Source: Escherichia coli 042 (GTDB lineage: Bacteria; Pseudomonadota; Gammaproteobacteria; Enterobacterales; Enterobacteriaceae). Taken from it: a stretch of DNA of 64,000 bases. The number at the start of each line of letters is the position of its first letter. The stretch's first letter is position 1. The DNA is taken from the NCBI RefSeq assembly GCF_000027125.1, contig NC_017626.1; one strand, written 5' to 3'. Made by a program: the position numbers and the translations under genes. Below, in pieces: positions 15,060 to 52,047 of this stretch. Under the pieces are notes generated by a model. That model was given only the letters and a program-made list of their open reading frames with translations, was not told where the DNA came from and searched no databases.

Positions 15060-15167
15060 TTACTTCCGCTTATTCAGCGAGTTCACGATCAGACTGGCAA
15101 GAATGCCAGCAATGACCGGAGCCGCTAAATCATGCCAGAAGGCCATGCCCAGTTCTGCGAGCGTCAT
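15060..15167 (-). CDS. ldrD: Ldr type I toxin peptide, copy 1 (35 aa: MTLAELGMAFWHDLAAPVIAGILASLIVNSLNKRK)
   Basis: C-terminal 35 codons of ORF 15060..15302; ATG at 15165-15167; matches LdrD family small hydrophobic toxin. Confidence 0.85.
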   Translation of the reverse strand: MTLAELGMAFWHDLAAPVIAGILASLIVNSLNKRK

Positions 15168-15215
15168 ATAGCCGCCTCTGTTGTAATGACAACGTTTCGC
15201 GGCTATTCTTGAGTT

Positions 15216-15282
15216 GTTTGGGTTCAAGATTAGCCCCCGTGATGTTGTCAGGTGCATACCTGCAACGTGCGGGGGTTTTCTC
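15216..15282 (+). ncRNA. rdlD: Rdl antisense RNA (antitoxin), copy 1; coordinates approximate
   Basis: Plus-strand candidate promoter ttgtaa-N17-tattct at 15181-15209, transcript ending at hairpin cccccgt...acgtgcgggggttttct (~15271-15282); antisense to the ldr mRNA leader. Confidence 0.4.
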
Positions 15283-15542
15283 TCTCCAGCAACCAATGCC
15301 ACCAGGGATTAAGCCCCCGCAACATTGCGCCTCACCGGAACCCTTCCGGCTTGCCGCTGATTCTACGGCCATTTTTGTTCGTCGAAATCCATCACTTCTT
15401 CACTCTGTGCTGCGCATTCCGCAGAATATTATCCGCTTGCAGCCGTTGCATTTTTCTTACGAAAAAGGCCGCAGAGTTTCACCTCTGCGGCCTGGTCCGG
15501 GCGCAAATTGCCATTACGGCAGCCTGACGCCCGTCTGACACG

Positions 15543-15650
15543 TTACTTCCGCTTATTCAGCCAGTTCACGATCATGCTGGCAAGAATGCCAGCAATGACC
15601 GGAGCCGCTAAATCATGCCAGAAGGCCATGCCCAGCTCTGCGAGCGTCAT
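15543..15650 (-). CDS. ldrD: Ldr type I toxin peptide, copy 2 (35 aa, ...AGILASMIVNWLNKRK)
   Basis: Hand translation; ATG at 15648-15650, stop 15543-15545; absent from ORF track because the extended ORF is under 60 aa. Confidence 0.8.
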   Translation of the reverse strand: MTLAELGMAFWHDLAAPVIAGILASMIVNWLNKRK

Positions 15651-15698
15651 ATAGCCGCCAGTGTTGTAATGACAACGTTTCGCGGCTATTCTTGAGTT

Positions 15699-15765
15699 GT
15701 GTAGGTTCAAGAATGGCCCCCGTCATATTGTCAGGTGAATACCTGCAACGTGCGGGGGTTTTCTC
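15699..15765 (+). ncRNA. rdlD: Rdl antisense RNA, copy 2; placed by 483-bp periodicity
   Basis: Same offset from ldr stop as copy 1; homologous sequence with the same terminator hairpin. Confidence 0.35.
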
Positions 15766-16025
15766 TCTCCAGCAACCAATGCCACCAGGGATTAAGCCCC
15801 CGCAACATTGCGCCTCACCGGAACCCTTCCGGCTTGCCGCTGATTCTACGACTGTTTTTCTGTTCCGAAATCCATCACTTCTTCACTCTGTGCTGCGCAT
15901 TCCGCAGAATATTATCCGCTTGCAGCCGTTGCATTTTTCTTACGAAAAAGGCCGCAGAGTTTTATCCCTGCGGCCTGATCCGGGCGCAAATTGCCATTAC
16001 GGCAGCCTGACGCCCGTCTGACACG

Positions 16026-16133
16026 TTACTTCTGCTTGTTCAGCCAGTTCACGATCATGCTGGCAAGAATGCCAGCAATGACCGGAGCCGCTAAATCGTG
16101 CCAGAAGGCCATGCCCAGCTCTGCGAGCGTCAT
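16026..16133 (-). CDS. ldrD: Ldr type I toxin peptide, copy 3 (35 aa, ...MIVNWLNKQK)
   Basis: C-terminal 35 codons of ORF 16026..16268. Confidence 0.85.
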   Translation of the reverse strand: MTLAELGMAFWHDLAAPVIAGILASMIVNWLNKQK

Positions 16134-16181
16134 ATAGCCGCCTCTGTTGTAATGACAACGTTTCGCGGCTATTCTTGAGTT

Positions 16182-16248
16182 GTGTAGGTTCAAGAATGGC
16201 CCCCGTGATGTTGTCAGGTGCATACCTGCAACGTGCGGGGGTTTTCTC
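16182..16248 (+). ncRNA. rdlD: Rdl antisense RNA, copy 3; placed by periodicity
   Basis: Same offset as copy 1. Confidence 0.35.
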
Positions 16249-16508
16249 TCTCCAGCAACCAATGCCACCAGGGATTAAGCCCCCGCAACATTGCGCCTCA
16301 CCGGAACCCTTCCGGCTTGCCGCTGATTCTACGACTGTTTTTCTGTTCCGAAATCCATCACTTCTTCACTCTGTGCTGCGCATTCCGCAGAATATTATCC
16401 GCTTGCAGCCGTTGCATTTTTCTTACGAAAAAGGCCGCAGAGTTTCACCTCTGCGGCCTGGTCCGGGCGCAAATTGCCATTACGGCAGCCTGACGCCCGT
16501 CTGACACG

Positions 16509-16616
16509 TTACTTCCGCTTGTTCAGCCAGTTCACGATCATGCTGGCAAGAATGCCAGCAATGACCGGAGCCGCTAAATCATGCCAGAAGGCCATGCCCA
16601 GTTCTGCGAGCGTCAT
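16509..16616 (-). CDS. ldrD: Ldr type I toxin peptide, copy 4 (35 aa, ...MIVNWLNKRK)
   Basis: C-terminal 35 codons of ORF 16509..16751. Confidence 0.85.
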   Translation of the reverse strand: MTLAELGMAFWHDLAAPVIAGILASMIVNWLNKRK

Positions 16617-16664
16617 ATAGCCGCCTGAGTTGTAATGACAACGTTTCGCGGCTATTCTTGAATG

Positions 16665-16731
16665 GTCTAGATGCAAGAATGGCCCCCGTGGTGTTGTCAG
16701 GTGCATACCTGCAACGTGCGGGGGTTTTCTC
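16665..16731 (+). ncRNA. rdlD: Rdl antisense RNA, copy 4; placed by periodicity
   Basis: Same offset as copy 1. Confidence 0.35.
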
Positions 16732-16991
16732 TCTCCAGCAACCAATGCCACCAGGGATTAAGCCCCCGCAACATTGCGCCTCACCGGAACCCTTCCGGCT
16801 TGCCGCTGATTCTACGGCCATTTTTGTTCGTCGAAATCCATCACTTCTTCACTCTGTGCTGCGCATTCCGCAGAATATTATCCGCTTGCAGCCGTTGCAT
16901 TTTTCTTACGAAAAAGGCCGCAGAGTTTTATCCCTGCGGCCTGATCCGGGCGCAAATTGCCATTACGGCAGCCTGACGCCCGTCTGACACG

Positions 16992-17099
16992 TTACTTCTG
17001 CTTGTTCAGCCAGTTCACGATCATGCTGGCAAGAATGCCAGCAATGACCGGAGCCGCTAAATCGTGCCAGAAGGCCATGCCCAGCTCTGCGAGCGTCAT
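16992..17099 (-). CDS. ldrD: Ldr type I toxin peptide, copy 5 (35 aa, ...MIVNWLNKQK)
   Basis: C-terminal 35 codons of ORF 16992..17267. Confidence 0.85.
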   Translation of the reverse strand: MTLAELGMAFWHDLAAPVIAGILASMIVNWLNKQK

Positions 17100-42706: not shown

Positions 42707-43147
42707 TTATTCGCTGTATTCTTCCTGGGTAATCAGTGTTTCTTTTGGTGGGTTTATTCCGGCATCACGAATATTCTTCTGCACCGCTACTGCACCAAAC
42801 AAGCTTAAGAAGAAAGCCAGTCCATAAAAACCTTTCTCGCTGAGTAATAACGTCGCATTCCACAGACCTACCATCAGTAACGCAACAGAGATAATAAAGA
42901 CAGTCAGGCAGGTCATATAATAAATGGAGGTGGTCGGTATGCCTTCATACTTGTCCCGAACGGTCTTTTGATAAGACGCCGCAGAAAACAGTCCTAATAC
43001 CAGTACGGCAAAATAATATCCTTTTTCATTTAACTGCATCTCTGCATTCCATAGCCCTAACAGATAGGTAACGATACCACCAACGAGAGCTATCCATGAC
43101 ACAATACTGAATGCCGGAGAATAGGTTGATATTTTGTTGTCCATCAC
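42707..43147 (-). CDS. yiaA: inner-membrane protein YiaA, ~145 aa
   Basis: ORF track; internally duplicated YiaAB two-helix module; start may be at the second ATG. Confidence 0.8.
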
Positions 43148-43698: not shown

Positions 43699-45153
43699 TT
43701 ACGCCATTAATGGCAGAAGTTGCTGATAGAGGCGACGGAACGTTTCACGTCGTGGCTGATAAGCGGCATAACGCTGCGCATCTGGTAGATGCGACTGTTC
43801 TAACGGCAGTTGCGGCAACAACTCAATGAGCGATTTCTCTGGATTCGCCGCAATCTGCGCCAGCCTTGCTGCGCCCAGAGCTGGCCCCACATCCCCCCCC
43901 GTGCGGTAATCGAGTTGCTGACCGCTGATATCCGCCAGCATCTGACGCCAGTACTCACTACGCGCCCCGCCACCAATCAACGTAACACTTTGCGGTTTAA
44001 TGCCGCAGCCATGCACGACATCCATGCCATCTGCCAGCGCATAACCCACACCTTCCAGCACTGCTCGCGCCAATTCATTGGGGCCATGTTGATGAGTCAA
44101 ACCAAAGAACCCCCCCTTCGCCTGGGGATTATTGTGTGGTGTACGCTCGCCGGAAAGATAAGGCAGAAACCAAACTGGCTCGGCACTTTCATCAGCCTGT
44201 TGAGCAGCCGCGATTAAAGCTGGGACATTGTTCAGGCCCGTTAATTTCGCAGCCCAATCCAGACACGACGCTGCACTCAGCATCACAGACATTAAATGCC
44301 AACGCTGCGGTAGCGCATGGCAAAAGCTGTGTACGGCGCTTTCTGGCTTGCTTAAGAACCCTTCGCTGACAGCAAAATAGACTCCCGACGTCCCCAGCGA
44401 TAACATTGCCTGATTAGCATCAACCATTCCTACACCAACCGCACCAGCTGCATTATCACCACCGCCTGCGACAACTGGCACCGCCGCCATACCCCACGCT
44501 TTCGCAACTTCAGGTAGCAAAGCACCAGTAATTTCGCTGCCTTCGTATAATGCGGGCATCTGGTCACGAGATAAGTGGCAAGCCTGCAGCATGTCGTCAC
44601 TCCAGTCACGCTTTGCGACATCCAGCCACATGGTGCCAGCTGCGTCAGACATATCGCTGGCAAACTCCCCCGTCATACGCAGACGCAAGTAATCTTTCGG
44701 TAACAATACTTTGTCGATTTGACGGAATATCTCCGGCTCATGCCGCTGCACCCATAGCAATTTAGGCGCAGTAAATCCGGGCATCATCAGGTTACCGGTA
44801 ATCACCCGCGATTGCGGAACTCGCGCTTCCAGCAAAGCGCACTCTTGCGCACAGCGCCCGTCGTTCCACAAAATGGCAGGGCGTAATAACCGTTGCTGGG
44901 CATCCAGTAAGGTTGCACCGTGCATCTGGCCGGCAATACCCAATGCTTTAACGTCCTGCAGAGAATGCTGATCGCCCAGGGCTTTCATTGCGCGATCAGT
45001 TGCCTGCCACCACTGTTCCGGGTCTTGTTCCGACCAGAGTGGATGCGGGCGCGAAACGGTCAGCTTTTCCGTTTGCGAAGCAACCACCTCACCCTGCTCG
45101 TTGAGCAAAATAACTTTTACGCCCGAGGTGCCAAGATCTATCCCGATATACAT
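43699..45153 (-). CDS. xylB: xylulokinase XylB, 484 aa
   Basis: ORF track; FGGY kinase N-terminus MYIGIDLGTSGVK. Confidence 0.95.
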   Translation of the reverse strand: MYIGIDLGTSGVKVILLNEQGEVVASQTEKLTVSRPHPLWSEQDPEQWWQATDRAMKALGDQHSLQDVKALGIAGQMHGATLLDAQQRLLRPAILWNDGRCAQECALLEARVPQSRVITGNLMMPGFTAPKLLWVQRHEPEIFRQIDKVLLPKDYLRLRMTGEFASDMSDAAGTMWLDVAKRDWSDDMLQACHLSRDQMPALYEGSEITGALLPEVAKAWGMAAVPVVAGGGDNAAGAVGVGMVDANQAMLSLGTSGVYFAVSEGFLSKPESAVHSFCHALPQRWHLMSVMLSAASCLDWAAKLTGLNNVPALIAAAQQADESAEPVWFLPYLSGERTPHNNPQAKGGFFGLTHQHGPNELARAVLEGVGYALADGMDVVHGCGIKPQSVTLIGGGARSEYWRQMLADISGQQLDYRTGGDVGPALGAARLAQIAANPEKSLIELLPQLPLEQSHLPDAQRYAAYQPRRETFRRLYQQLLPLMA

Positions 45154-45224
45154 ATCGATCGTTCCTTAAAAAAATGCCCGGTATCGCTACCGATAACCGG
45201 GCCAACGGACTGCACAGTTAGCCG

Positions 45225-46547
45225 TTATTTGTCGAACAGATAATGATTTACCAGATTTTCCAGTTGCTCCTGGCGACCACTCTGATGCACCGGAGACAAA
45301 TTGTGTTCCTGAGCATATTTGGCTAAATCTGCCAGTGACATTTGGCCTTTCAGGATTTGCTGGCCTAATTCGCTATTCCAGCCGGAATAACGCTGCGCGA
45401 TGCGTTTATCCAGCTCGCCATCTTCAATCATGCGTGCTGCAATTTTCAGCGCCAACGCCATCGTATCCATCGCGCCGATATGACCGTAAAACAGATCATA
45501 TTTATCAGTACTTTGACGACGTACTTTGGCATCGAAGTTCAGACCGCCGGTGGTGAAACCGCCTGCTTTGAGAATTTCATACATCACCAACGCATTCTCT
45601 TCCACACTGTTCGGGAACTGGTCGGTGTCCCAGCCCAGTTGTGCATCGCCACGGTTAGCGTCGACAGAACCGAACAGGCCAAGCGCAATGGCGGTGGCTA
45701 TTTCATGATGGAAAGAGTGACCTGCCAGCGTCGCGTGGTTAGCTTCAATGTTCAGTTTAATCTCTTTTTCCAGACCAAACTGTTTCAGGAAGCCATACAC
45801 CGTCGCAGCATCGTAATCATATTGATGTTTAGTCGGTTCTTGCGGTTTCGGTTCGATAAGCAACGTACCCTGGAAGCCGATTTTATGTTTATGCTCAACC
45901 ACCATTTGCATAAAGCGGCCCAGCTGTTCACGCTCCTGACGCAAGTCGGTATTTAACAACGTTTCGTAACCTTCACGACCGCCCCACAGGACATAGTTTT
46001 CACCGCCCAATTTATGGGTTGCTTCCATCGCTGTAACAACTTGCGTTGCCGCCCAGCTGAAGACTTCTGGATCTGGGTTCGTCGCCGCACCCGCGCCGTA
46101 GCGAGGGTTTGTAAAGCAGTTAGCGGTTCCCCACAGCAGCTTCACGCCGCTCTCTTCTTGCTTGCCTGCCAGGACATCAACCATTTGCGCAAAATTATTG
46201 ATGTACTCTTTTAACGACGCGCCCTCAGGGGAAACATCCACATCGTGGAAGCAATAAAATGGCACATGTAACTTGTGGAAAAACTCAAATGCGACATCTG
46301 CTTTACGCTTCGCCAACGCCAGTGCCTCACCAGGCTGCTGCCACGGACGATTAAACGCCCCCACACCAAACATGTCCGCCCCGTTCCAGCAGAAGGTGTG
46401 CCAGTAGCAGGCGGCAAAACGCAAGTGCTCTTCCATACGCTTGCCCAACACCAGTTCGTCGGGATTATAGTGATGGAATGCTAACGGGTTAGAGGATTTT
46501 GAGCCTTCATAACGAACGCGATCGAGCTGGTCAAAATAGGCTTGCAT
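45225..46547 (-). CDS. xylA: xylose isomerase XylA, 440 aa
   Basis: ORF track 45225..46559; start placed at ATG 46545-46547 ([16 protein letters not shown]...). Confidence 0.95.
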
Positions 46548-46912
46548 ATTGAACTCCATAATCAGGTAATGCCGCGGGTGATGGATGATGTCGTAATATT
46601 GGGCACTCCCTTTCAGTTGCTCAATTATGTTATTTCACACTGCTATTGAGATAATTCACAAGTGTGCGCTCGCTCGCAAAATAAAATGGAATGATGAAAC
46701 TGGGTAATTCCTCGAAGAGAAAAATGCAATAAGTACAATTGCGCAACAAAAGTAAGATCTCTGTCATAAATCAAGAAATAAACCAAAAATCGTAATCGAA
46801 AGATAAAAATCTGTAATTGTTTTCCCCTGTTTAGTTGCTAAAAATTGGTTACGTTTATCGCGGTGATTGTTACTTATTAAAGCTGTCCTCTACCTACAGA
46901 AGGCCCTACACC
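46548..46912. promoter_or_regulatory. divergent xylAB / xylFGH promoter region (expected XylR and CRP operator sites)
   Basis: 365-bp AT-rich intergenic region between divergent xylA and xylF; individual sites not resolved by eye. Confidence 0.55.
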
Positions 46913-47905
46913 ATGAAAATAAAGAACATTCTACTCACCCTTTGCACCTCACTTCTGCTTACCAACGTTGCGGCACACGCCAAAGAAGTCAAAATAGGTA
47001 TGGCGATTGATGATCTCCGTCTTGAACGCTGGCAAAAAGATCGAGATATTTTTGTGAAAAAGGCAGAATCTCTCGGCGCGAAAGTATTTGTACAGTCTGC
47101 AAATGGCAATGAAGAAACACAAATGTCGCAGATTGAAAACATGATTAACCGGGGCGTCGATGTTCTTGTCATTATTCCGTATAACGGTCAGGTATTAAGT
47201 AACGTTGTAAAAGAAGCCAAACAAGAAGGTATTAAAGTATTAGCTTACGACCGTATGATTAACGATGCGGATATCGATTTTTATATTTCTTTCGATAACG
47301 AAAAAGTCGGTGAACTGCAGGCAAAAGCCCTGGTCGATATTGTTCCGCAAGGTAATTACTTCCTGATGGGCGGCTCGCCGGTAGATAACAACGCCAAGCT
47401 GTTCCGCGCCGGGCAAATGAAAGTGTTAAAACCTTACGTTGATTCCGGAAAAATTAAAGTCGTTGGTGACCAATGGGTTGATGGCTGGTTACCGGAAAAC
47501 GCATTGAAAATTATGGAAAACGCGCTAACCGCCAATAATAACAAAATTGATGCTGTAGTTGCCTCAAACGATGCCACCGCAGGTGGGGCAATTCAGGCAT
47601 TAAGTGCGCAAGGTTTATCAGGGAAAGTAGCAATTTCCGGCCAGGATGCGGATCTCGCAGGTATTAAACGTATTGCTGCCGGTACGCAAACTATGACGGT
47701 GTATAAACCTATTACATTGTTGGCAAATACTGCCGCAGAAATTGCCGTTGAGTTGGGCAATGGTCAGGAACCAAAAGCAGATACCACTCTGAATAATGGT
47801 CTGAAAGATGTTCCCTCCCGCCTGCTGACACCGATCGATGTGAATAAAAACAACATCAAAGAAACGGTAGTTAAAGACGGATTCCACAAAGAGAGCGAGC
47901 TGTAA
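46913..47905 (+). CDS. xylF: D-xylose ABC transporter periplasmic binding protein XylF, 330 aa
   Basis: ORF track 46835..47905; start placed at ATG 46913 (MKIKNILLTLCTSLLLTNVAAHA signal peptide). Confidence 0.95.
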   Translation: MKIKNILLTLCTSLLLTNVAAHAKEVKIGMAIDDLRLERWQKDRDIFVKKAESLGAKVFVQSANGNEETQMSQIENMINRGVDVLVIIPYNGQVLSNVVKEAKQEGIKVLAYDRMINDADIDFYISFDNEKVGELQAKALVDIVPQGNYFLMGGSPVDNNAKLFRAGQMKVLKPYVDSGKIKVVGDQWVDGWLPENALKIMENALTANNNKIDAVVASNDATAGGAIQALSAQGLSGKVAISGQDADLAGIKRIAAGTQTMTVYKPITLLANTAAEIAVELGNGQEPKADTTLNNGLKDVPSRLLTPIDVNKNNIKETVVKDGFHKESEL

Positions 47906-47982
47906 GCGTTACGCCCCGGCGAGGAGCGGGGGCGTGATTTCTCTCCATGCCGCGTGAATGAATTGGCTTAGGTGGAGTCGTT

Positions 47983-49524
47983 ATGCCTTATCTACTTGAA
48001 ATGAAGAACATTACCAAAACCTTCGGCAGTGTGAAGGCGATTGATAACGTCAGCTTGCGGTTGAATGCTGGCGAAATCGTCTCACTCTGTGGGGAAAATG
48101 GGTCTGGTAAATCAACGCTGATGAAAGTGCTGTGTGGTATTTATCCCCATGGTTCCTACGAAGGCGAAATTATTTTTGCGGGAGAAGAGATTCAGGCGAG
48201 TCACATCCGCGATACCGAACGCAAAGGTATCGCCATTATTCACCAGGAATTGGCCCTGGTGAAAGAATTGACTGTGCTGGAAAATATCTTCCTGGGTAAC
48301 GAAATAACCCACAATGGCATTATGGATTATGACCTGATGACACTACGCTGTCAGAAGCTGCTCGCACAGGTCAGTTTATCCATTTCACCCGATACCCGCG
48401 TTGGCGATTTAGGGCTTGGGCAACAACAACTGGTTGAAATTGCCAAGGCACTTAATAAACAGGTGCGTTTGTTAATTCTCGATGAACCGACAGCCTCATT
48501 AACTGAGCAGGAAACGTCGGTTTTACTGGATATTATTCGCGATCTACAACAGCACGGTATCGCCTGTATTTATATTTCGCACAAACTCAACGAAGTCAAA
48601 GCGATTTCCGATACGATTTGCGTTATTCGCGACGGTCAGCACATTGGTACGCGTGATGCTGCCGGAATGAGTGAAGACGATATTATCACCATGATGGTCG
48701 GGCGAGAGTTAACCGCGCTTTACCCTAATGAACCACATACCACCGGAGATGAAATATTACGTATTGAACATCTGACGGCATGGCATCCGGTTAATCGTCA
48801 TATTAAACGAGTTAATGATGTCTCGTTTTCCCTGAAACGTGGCGAAATACTGGGTATTGCCGGACTCGTTGGTGCCGGACGTACCGAGACCATTCAGTGC
48901 CTGTTTGGCGTGTGGCCCGGACAATGGGAAGGAAAAATTTATATTGATGGCAAACAGGTAGATATTCGTAACTGTCAGCAAGCCATCGCCCAGGGGATTG
49001 CGATGGTCCCCGAAGACAGAAAGCGCGACGGCATCGTTCCGGTAATGGCGGTTGGTAAAAATATTACCCTCGCCGCACTCAATAAATTTACCGGCGGTAT
49101 TAGCCAGCTTGATGACGCGGCAGAGCAAAAATGTATTCTGGAATCAATCCAGCAACTCAAAGTTAAAACGTCGTCCCCCGACCTTGCTATTGGACGTTTG
49201 AGCGGCGGTAATCAGCAAAAAGCGATCCTCGCTCGCTGCCTGTTACTCAACCCGCGCATTCTCATTCTTGATGAGCCTACCAGGGGTATCGATATTGGCG
49301 CGAAATACGAGATCTACAAATTAATTAACCAACTCGTCCAGCAGGGTATTGCCGTTATTGTCATCTCTTCCGAATTACCTGAAGTGCTCGGCCTTAGCGA
49401 TCGTGTACTGGTGATGCATGAAGGGAAACTAAAAGCCAACCTGATAAATCATAACCTGACTCAGGAGCAGGTGATGGAAGCCGCATTGAGGAGCGAACAT
49501 CATGTCGAAAAGCAATCCGTCTGA
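47983..49524 (+). CDS. xylG: D-xylose ABC transporter ATP-binding protein XylG, 513 aa
   Basis: ORF track; duplicated ABC ATPase domains. Confidence 0.95.
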
Positions 49525-50683
49525 AGTGAAATTGGCCGTACCGACATCCGGTGGCTTTTCCGGGCTGAAGTCACTGAATTTGCAGGTCTTCGTGATGATT
49601 GCAGCTATCATCGCAATCATGCTGTTCTTTACCTGGACCACCGATGGTGCCTACTTAAGCGCCCGTAACGTCTCCAACCTGTTACGCCAGACAGCGATTA
49701 CCGGCATCCTCGCAGTAGGAATGGTGTTCGTCATAATTTCTGCTGAAATCGACCTTTCCGTCGGCTCAATGATGGGGCTGTTAGGTGGCGTCGCGGCGAT
49801 TTGTGACGTCTGGTTAGGCTGGCCTTTGCCACTGACCATCATTGTAACGCTGGTTCTGGGACTGCTTCTCGGTGCCTGGAACGGATGGTGGGTAGCGTAC
49901 CGCAAAGTCCCTTCATTTATTGTCACCCTCGCGGGCATGTTGGCATTTCGCGGCATACTCATTGGCATCACCAACGGCACGACTGTATCTCCCACCAGCG
50001 CCGCGATGTCACAAATTGGGCAAAGCTATCTACCCGCCAGCACCGGCTTCATCATTGGCGCGCTTGGCTTAATGGCTTTTGTTGGCTGGCAATGGCGCGG
50101 AAGAATGCGCCGTCAGGCTTTGGGTTTGCAGTCTCCGGCCTCTACCGCAGTTGTCGGTCGCCAGTCATTAACGGCGATTATCGTCTTAGGCGCAATCTGG
50201 CTGTTGAACGATTACCGTGGCGTTCCCACTCCCGTTCTGCTGCTGACGTTGCTGTTACTCGGCGGAATGTTTATGGCAACGCGGACGGCATTTGGACGAC
50301 GCATTTATGCCATCGGCGGCAATCTGGAAGCAGCACGTCTCTCCGGGATTAACGTTGAACGCACCAAACTTGCCGTATTCGCTATTAACGGATTAATGGT
50401 CGCTATCGCCGGATTAATCCTCAGTTCTCGACTTGGCGCTGGTTCACCTTCTGCGGGAAATATCGCCGAACTGGACGCAATTGCAGCATGCGTGATTGGC
50501 GGCACCAGTCTGGCAGGCGGCGTCGGGAGCGTGGCTGGAGCGGTAATGGGGGCATTCATCATGGCTTCACTGGATAACGGTATGAGTATGATGGATGTAC
50601 CGACCTTCTGGCAGTATATCGTTAAAGGTGCGATTCTGTTGCTGGCAGTATGGATGGACTCCGCAACCAAACGCCGTTCTTGA
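49502..50683 (+). CDS. xylH: D-xylose ABC transporter permease XylH, 393 aa
   Basis: ORF track; 23-bp overlap with xylG. Confidence 0.95.
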
Positions 50684-50760
50684 TTTTGATAAAAATTTTC
50701 TCAAAGCCGGTAACGTATTACCGGTTTTGAGTTTTTGCATGATTCAGCAGGAAAAGAACC

Positions 50761-51940
50761 ATGTTTACTAAACGTCACCGCATCACATTACTGTTCAATG
50801 CCAATAAAGCCTATGACCGGCAGGTAGTAGAAGGCGTAGGGGAATATTTACAGGCGTCACAATCGGAATGGGATATTTTCATTGAAGAATGATTTCCGCG
50901 CCCGCATTGATAAAATCAAGGACTGGTTGGGAGATGGCGTCATTGCCGACTTCGACGACAAACAGATCGAGCAAGCTCTGGCTGATGTCCACGTCCCTAT
51001 TGTTGGGGTTGGCGGCTCGTATCACCTTGCAGAAAGTTACCCACCCGTTCATTACATTGCCACCGATAACTATGCGCTGGTTGAAAGCGCATTTTTGCAT
51101 TTAAAAGAGAAAGGCGTTAACCGCTTTGCTTTTTATGGTCTTCCGGAATCAAGCGGCAAACGTTGGGCCACTGAACGCGAATATGCATTTCGTCAGCTTG
51201 TCGCCGAAGAAAAGTATCGCGGAGTGGTTTATCAGGGGTTAGAAACCGCGCCAGAGAACTGGCAACACGCGCAAAATCGGCTGGCAGACTGGCTACAAAC
51301 GCTGCCACCGCAAACCGGGATTATTGCCGTTACTGACGCCCGGGCGCGGCATATTCTGCAAGTATGTGAACATCTACACATTCCCGTACCGGAAAAATTA
51401 TGCGTGATTGGCATCGATAACGAAGAACTGACCCGCTATCTGTCGCGTGTCGCCCTTTCTTCGGTCGCTCAGGGCGCACGGCAAATGGGCTATCAGGCGG
51501 CAAAACTGTTGCATCGATTATTAGATAAAGAAGAAATGCCGCTACAGCGGATTTTGGTCCCACCAGTTCGCGTCATTGAACGGCGCTCAACAGATTACCG
51601 CTCGCTGACCGATCCCGCCGTTATTCAGGCCATGCATTACATTCGTAATCACGCCTGTAAAGGGATTAAAGTGGATCAGGTACTGGATGCGGTGGGCATA
51701 TCACGCTCCAATCTTGAGAAGCGTTTTAAAGAAGAGGTGGGTGAAACCATCCATGCCATGATTCATGCCGAGAAGCTGGAGAAAGCGCGCAGTCTGCTGA
51801 TTTCAACCACCTTGTCGATCAATGAGATATCGCAAATGTGCGGTTATCCATCGCTGCAATATTTCTACTCTGTTTTTAAAAAAGCATATGACACGACGCC
51901 AAAAGAGTATCGCGATGTAAATAGCGAGGTCATGTTGTAG
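50761..51940 (+). pseudogene. xylR: xylR (AraC-family xylose activator) disrupted by a +1 frameshift near 50890: N-terminal 43 codons end at TGA 50890-50892, remainder continues in the +1 frame to 51940
   Basis: ATG 50761 frame reads MFTKRHRITLLFNANKAYDRQVVEGVGEYLQASQSEWDIFIEE then stop; ORF track 50882..51940 (352 aa) continues DFRARIDKIKDW... through a C-terminal AraC-type HTH; removing one T at ~50890 restores a single 392-codon frame. Confidence 0.8.
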
Positions 51941-51991
51941 CGATGATGAGAATTGTCGGCGTCACATCAGGTAACCCAGCACAACCACCTG

Positions 51992-52028
51992 ATACGAGCA
52001 AAAGCCTTATCCGACTGACAAGTCGGAT
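51992..52028. terminator. palindromic hairpin between convergent xylR and bax (probable bidirectional terminator)
   Basis: gccttatccgactgacaagtcggataaggc, a perfect 13-bp inverted repeat with a 4-nt loop. Confidence 0.4.
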
Positions 52029-52047
52029 AAGGCTCGAGGAAATGCAA

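Follow-up and report, generated by a model that had tools for sequence, protein, structure and literature searches.

The window analysed here, a 64,000-nucleotide stretch of Escherichia coli 042 (contig NC_017626.1), carries the xyl genes in the order xylBA / xylFGH-xylR-bax, as in the reference. XylR with bound xylose, together with CRP, is required to turn on the divergent xylAB and xylFGH promoters. In the window xylR is split between two reading frames, while the catabolic and transport genes are intact, as the first-pass annotation of this DNA had held. The features of the locus are given below, with Ecol_316 (NZ_CP018957), the nearest complete genome, as the main reference.

43699 to 46547, minus strand: xylB (43699-45153) and xylA (45225-46547), full length and 100% identical to the Ecol_316 proteins.
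46548 to 46912, no strand: divergent xylA-xylF control region, the site of XylR and CRP action, with no difference from Ecol_316, which itself has an intact xylR.
46913 to 50683, plus strand: xylF, xylG and xylH, intact, upstream of xylR and on the same strand; full length, gap-free and 99.7-100% identical to the Ecol_316 proteins.
50761 to 50892, plus strand: xylR 5' fragment, codons 1-43 followed by a premature TGA (from the open reading frames and a PF22177 hit in public contigs).
50879 to 50892, no strand: TCATT-GAAG-AATGA, a perfect 5-bp inverted repeat and candidate quasi-palindrome template (from folds of mutant and wild type).
50882 to 51940, plus strand: xylR 3' fragment in the +1 frame, as the open reading frame from TTG 50882 (from the open reading frames, Pfam and the K-12 comparison).
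50889 to 51104, plus strand: a 71-residue third-frame, out-of-frame open reading frame from an ATG made by the inserted T, which overlaps the new TGA (ATGA) (from the list of open reading frames).
50890, plus strand: the inserted T (from comparison with Ecol_316 and complete E. coli genomes).

Translation from ATG 50761 on the plus strand proceeds for 43 codons, giving the product MFTKRHRITLLFNANKAYDRQVVEGVGEYLQASQSEWDIFIEE, and stops at TGA 50890-50892. The remainder of XylR, residues 44-392 (349 residues, from DFRARIDK to NSEVML), begins at 50891 in the +1 frame and ends at 51940; this frame is open from 50831, and the reading frame that starts within it at TTG 50882 encodes 352 amino acids. 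At the break the window has GAAGAATGATTTCC, with 50873-50898 reading by codon ATT TTC ATT GAA GAA TGA TTT CCG, and the same site in Ecol_316 has GAAGAAGATTTCC. The lesion is one additional T, base 50890, which sits between A50889 and G50891 outside any homopolymer. It is the sole difference between the window and Ecol_316 over 6,131 bases, including 1,301 bases around xylR. A 71-mer with this site at its centre was matched in 5,409 complete E. coli genomes, 5,406 of which lack the T. A functional XylR would be expected to have an uninterrupted frame of about 392 codons; here a stop follows codon 43. When the T is removed in silico, the protein equals K-12 XylR (PDB 4FE4) except for D77H, and the repaired translation contains all of the expected domains: PBP1_XylR (PF22177, residues 7-104), Peripla_BP_3 (113-277), HTH_18 (309-384) and an AraC-type HTH (294-384). 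The first-pass annotation had described this arrangement, with 43 residues of XylR ending at the TGA, the rest of the protein in the +1 frame up to 51940 and one extra T between them, and had called for alignment to a reference xylR; the reading frames, their translations and both comparisons bear it out.

The allele is also found well beyond strain 042. In a search of public contigs drawn from sources including NCBI, ENA, JGI and Logan, the exact 352-residue product was present on 71 contigs (118 index blocks) and the 43-residue stub on 320 contigs (552 blocks). Gene calls in public contigs include the stub, which gives a PF22177 hit, and entries for it in S. boydii 4444-74 and E. coli KTE51 are named 'xylose operon regulatory protein'. 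The identical insertion occurs in three RefSeq complete genomes, the CSF isolates N10 and N25 and the Ecuadorian 23CRST038, where PGAP annotates xylR as a 'frameshifted' pseudogene; these three share one haplotype, with the same adjoining IS150 and IS3-family insertions. Closer to strain 042, an ENA metagenome scaffold and the NCTC chromosome LR134238 (L012) carry the T and show 0 substitutions relative to the window over 6.1 kb, and the loci L007 and L012 equal the window over this distance with the T included, as expected of an inherited pseudogene. The +T allele is heritable, is circulating and is already flagged by standard annotation. The xylR locus of L012 (3122-4179) has in addition a second 1-nt deletion that leaves fragments of 292 and 60 amino acids; this may represent either further decay or a long-read error.

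In the N10, N25 and 23CRST038 carriers the xylR allele is a different one: it has 16 coding SNPs, and its flanks diverge from the window by about 2%. When the loci encoding the stub were collected, they fell into six distinct xyl haplotypes that differ pairwise by 54-143 substitutions per 6.1 kb (1-2%). We sought the closest wild-type relative of each T haplotype in the complete-genome set, with the following results over about 6.1 kb, the T itself set aside.

Window: wild-type twin Ecol_316, 0 differences.
N10: wild-type twin EcE.CRE.COL, 0 differences.
L010: wild-type twin Combat2C1, 0 differences.
L008: wild-type twin 13TMH22, 0 differences.
L013: wild-type twin 50579417, 1 difference.
L009 (CP026827): wild-type twin O103 ML775, 4 differences.

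Because each haplotype has its own wild-type twin, the T arose, or was introduced, separately at least six times. The near identity of these twins, at a site that is not a homopolymer, points to recurrent mutation. The presence of the identical +T on at least six xyl haplotypes is the new point of this analysis; it had been missed by the first-pass annotation, as had the existing database labels of frameshifted or truncated xylR.

Recurrence of one allele need not imply a raised mutation rate at the site, as positive selection could favour the allele itself, either as the earliest clean null or through an activity of the fragment that lacks residues 1-40. Consistent with this, xylR has been listed, on the basis of 60,472 E. 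coli genomes, with the transcription factors in which deleterious polymorphisms are in excess (PMC10401003), xylose use has been lost convergently in Shigella (PMC8767353, PMC12795559), and the +T allele is as abundant as the homopolymer frameshift alleles of the gene. However, selection for loss should fix a variety of nulls and not a single non-repeat insertion in particular. Other truncations of xylR are indeed numerous, and we see no sign of any activity of the fragment. We thus consider selection an unlikely source of the recurrence, though one that keeps some force. Since xylR loss costs little in host-associated niches, fixed +T alleles are probably tolerated or mildly favoured.

Alternatively, the T could have arisen once and spread between lineages in very short gene-conversion patches. 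The 216 bp around the T, from 50713 to 50928, are invariant among all haplotypes, so a patch under 217 bp would be traceless, and for a single event the probability of leaving no trace is 0.53 at a mean tract of 50 bp. Repeated mutation is nevertheless favoured, because traceless conversion requires patches shorter than 216 bp and this is improbable five times over: tracts of 50 bp give five such events a probability of 0.04, and tracts of 542 bp one of about 3e-9. In addition, no carrier has an imported flanking SNP, four of the twins are identical over 6.1 kb, and donors are rare, at about 0.06% of complete genomes. Spread by conversion from a single origin is therefore quite improbable.

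If the same T was gained independently on at least six E. coli/Shigella xyl haplotypes, then the site behaves as a non-homopolymer mutational hotspot. How might it arise? Simple slippage cannot make a T at 50890, because the base is flanked by A and G. Nor does the site resemble a simple-sequence contingency locus, as the inserted base has A and G for neighbours and GAAGAAGA is the one repeat in the vicinity. The insertion does, however, turn TCATT-GAAG-AAGA into the perfect 5-bp inverted repeat TCATT-GAAG-AATGA, which exists only after the insertion. The event has the form of a quasi-palindrome correction by a test that we set after the mutation had been seen, in that complementarity is raised and the opposite arm specifies the added base. 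Of 3,535 +1 insertions in xylR, 43 (1.2%) complete an inverted repeat of 5 bp or longer, the T among them. In the proposed mechanism, a nascent strand ending ...TCATTGAAGAA would fold back with its AA pairing with TT, use its own TCA as the template to add T-G-A, and realign afterwards on GA; quasi-palindrome template switching of this kind is established at E. coli hotspots (PMC7202029). Its hallmarks in that work are stimulation by loss of ExoI/ExoVII, by AZT and by fluoroquinolones, and abolition by disruption of an arm.

Several observations temper this proposal. In DNA folds of mutant and wild type, the 5-bp hairpin is no stabler than shuffled sequence (z about 0). The predicted truncated products of four stronger quasi-palindrome-completing xylR insertions, with 7-8 bp stems, were not found in a 15-billion-protein collection, whereas all six of the homopolymer frameshift products of xylR that we tested were present. 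Hotspot strength thus fails to track quasi-palindrome strength, which alone is no predictor of a hotspot, and we dropped it as one. A larger 10-bp quasi-palindrome seen in the wild-type fold, GGATATTTTC/GAAGATTTCC, was rejected as the template because the T does not improve its pairing. An upstream direct quasi-repeat, GGAATG (50865-70), could serve as an equally good template, and is computationally indistinguishable from the quasi-palindrome. Overall, the evidence points weakly to a short template switch as the most likely, and the best available, source of the T. We can therefore propose only tentatively that wild E. coli have a natural insertion hotspot, outside any homopolymer, at xylR position 129/130, active in at least six backgrounds and probably through a 5-bp template switch. 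If so, templated frameshifts at minimal quasi-palindromes would shape natural pseudogene formation, and the site would provide a ready-made chromosomal reporter for such events, scored by xylose phenotype.

Public assemblies often show xylR frameshifted in its T5 and A5 runs. Loss of a T from the T5 run at CDS position 331 (window about 51092) gives a 113-residue product found on 111 contigs. For the T5 run at CDS 369 (window about 51130), the queried sequence with one T lost is on 8 contigs, and its cluster holds about 15 other 159-residue sequences, one of them on 535 contigs in S. flexneri. Loss of an A from the A5 run at CDS 632 (window about 51393) is represented on 29 contigs.

What the T does to the protein can be judged from the crystal structures of XylR, in which residues 1-274 make up the N-terminal domain, responsible for sensing xylose and for dimerisation (PMC3561964). 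Within this domain beta1, alpha1 and beta2 touch the partner subunit's DNA-binding domain via Phe2, Glu28, Tyr29, Ala32 and Glu36; the main dimer interface, which is antiparallel, also draws on alpha1 and beta2; and the change induced by xylose is passed on to the HTH motifs through slight movements of alpha1 (PMC3561964). Codon 43, where the frame breaks, lies within PF22177 (residues 7-104), and residues 1-43 of the stub comprise exactly beta1, alpha1 and beta2. A product lacking residues 1-40 would miss parts needed for dimerisation and signalling. Based upon the truncation of PF22177 and the interface elements held in the stub, the loss of activator function that the first-pass annotation had predicted is well founded, and XylR is very probably null in strain 042.

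Two routes might still give a functional XylR from this gene: translation could restart at TTG 50882, or ribosomes could shift into the +1 frame at GAA-UGA in the manner of prfB. In their favour, the downstream frame is already open before the break, the TTG, which precedes the stop by 8 nt, is served by a weak SD-like element (pairing of -4.6 kcal/mol, vs -4.3 kcal/mol for the native start), and the stop codon coincides with the shift site, again like prfB. Some 352-residue product may indeed be made from the TTG. The first-pass annotation had allowed for such a product and was right about the start, but wrong in taking it to lack 43 residues: it lacks residues 1-40, and MKN replaces IEE at 41-43. 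With these residues beta1, alpha1 and beta2 would be gone, and so would the dimer interface and the signalling contacts, and PF22177 would be truncated. The AUG made by the T (50889-91), which has upstream SD-like pairing of -4.0 kcal/mol, overlaps the UGA in a classic coupling arrangement, yet it opens a junk frame; it would compete for reinitiating or coupled ribosomes and send them into this 71-residue frame. As for recoding, tRNA-Glu on GAA cannot re-pair on AAU, there is no strong SD 3 nt upstream, only the weak SD-like pairing, and the shift is not a conserved recoding signal, because 5,406 of 5,409 genomes lack the frameshift. We therefore reject prfB-like recoding, and we regard any route to a functional XylR from this gene as very improbable.

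A set of 55 annotated Ecol_316 proteins was compared with the translated window; all of them align full length and gap-free, including bcs, dpp, glyQS, xylBA, xylFGH, malS and yiaJ-O, and only xylR is split in two frames, so the window assembly is not indel-ridden. That the T is a sequencing or assembly error in a strain whose xylR is intact, as might be supposed when a single-base indel is the commonest assembly artefact and the T is present in just 3 of 5,409 complete genomes, is extremely unlikely and was rejected, because none of the other genes in the 64 kb is broken, the site lies outside any homopolymer, many independent assemblies have this allele on this haplotype (the ENA metagenome scaffold and NCTC chromosome, and 71 contigs altogether), and the T is inherited by descent in the N10/N25/23CRST038/KTE lineage, with twins that have identical flanks and lack it. 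This also answers the doubt over a base-call error that accompanied the original observation. We conclude, with good but not complete confidence, that the locus is best explained as a genuine, vertically inherited xylR pseudogene created by the +T, with loss of the activator, and that the T is recurrent on at least six haplotypes.

The age of the insertion can be placed relative to its surroundings. Among 5,426 RefSeq complete E. coli genomes, the best match to the window is 99.4% over 25 kb, to a small group that includes Ecol_316. Between about 36500 and 54000 (17.5 kb) only 11 SNPs and the T separate the window from Ecol_316, and the flanks are 1.5-2% divergent; this block, from glyQS to bax, looks like a recombination mosaic. 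Because the block is near-identical and Ecol_316 lacks the T, the T is younger than the block that the two share.

Elsewhere in the window, a gene for an Ldr type I toxin is repeated in tandem at 15063-17099, with five copies spaced 483 bp apart; the Ecol_316 annotation has four, so the array varies in copy number. The yiaA gene (42710-43144) is intact in the window and is annotated as a pseudogene in Ecol_316, with an internal stop from a single SNP at 43049. The REP-like xylR-bax intergenic stretch at 51976-52036 shows an 89-bp indel and clustered substitutions relative to K-12-like haplotypes. The plus-strand GC skew of the whole window is -0.03, which places xylFGH-xylR on the lagging strand, transcribed head-on to replication.

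The expected consequence for the strain follows from the established role of XylR in xyl induction (PMC3561964; RefSeq product note). The T after codon 43 shifts the frame, and translation from the native ATG halts at once at the TGA. The premature TGA should leave a 43-residue stub and no D-xylose-responsive activator, and xylAB and xylFGH, with genes and promoters intact, would yet stay silent without XylR. Since XylR is very probably null while xylAB, xylFGH and their control region are intact, we predict that strain 042 is xylose-negative or non-inducible, or at best very slow on xylose. Such a diagnostic phenotype, predicted despite intact catabolic and transport genes, bears on biotyping, on metabolic models and on pentose-feedstock use.

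Taken by itself, the xylR lesion is an ordinary loss-of-function pseudogene that is already labelled in public records, and its class is not novel; losses of xylR have been recorded before in both E. coli and Shigella. A literature search for the specific +T allele or for xylose-negative E. coli lineages returned nothing specific. The locus adds a further case to the tendency of E. coli/Shigella lineages to lose sugar regulators. It also supplies a small natural data set on sequence-directed frameshift mutagenesis, in which the same non-repeat insertion has occurred at least six times, and it carries a caution, that shared pseudogene alleles need not imply common descent.

How does this locus compare with known systems? 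The intact counterpart is K-12 XylR (b3569; PDB 4FE4/4FE7), the activator of xylAB and xylFGH. The gene of strain 042 is like it in its place after xylFGH and in its Pfam domains, but its frame is broken after codon 43, so that no full-length protein is possible. The nearest equivalents of the broken gene are the pseudogenes of N10, N25 and 23CRST038 and the stubs of S. boydii 4444-74 and KTE51, which have the identical +T at the same position and the same 43-residue stub. The xyl haplotype of the N10-type carriers, however, differs from the window by about 2% (126 substitutions per 6.1 kb), and because of this the two alleles are independent in origin.

Shigella offers a broader parallel, in that the xylose regulon has likewise been inactivated in host-associated lineages of the E. 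coli complex. Its convergent losses of xylose use include a xylH frameshift or xylR truncation in S. flexneri 6 and a deletion of xylFGH-xylR in S. sonnei (PMC8767353, PMC12795559). Unlike Shigella, the window shows neither the typical IS expansion nor wider gene decay, and every other gene in it is intact. A Shigella-type origin of the window was rejected, because IS elements and decay outside xylR are both absent and the full 64 kb runs collinear with E. coli Ecol_316.

At the level of mutation, the recurrent xylR homopolymer slippage alleles (T5 at 331 and 369, A5 at 632) resemble the +T in being found on many public contigs, but they sit in runs of five identical bases, whereas T 50890 is flanked by A and G. 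The quasi-palindrome hotspots of E. coli thyA and the lacZ QP5/QP6 reporters differ from xylR in strength: the xylR arms are 5 bp vs about 17-18 bp, its fold energy is ordinary, and stronger quasi-palindromes in xylR are not hot. The form of the event is nonetheless the same as in those systems, with an imperfect repeat made perfect, a base templated by the opposite arm, and recurrence.
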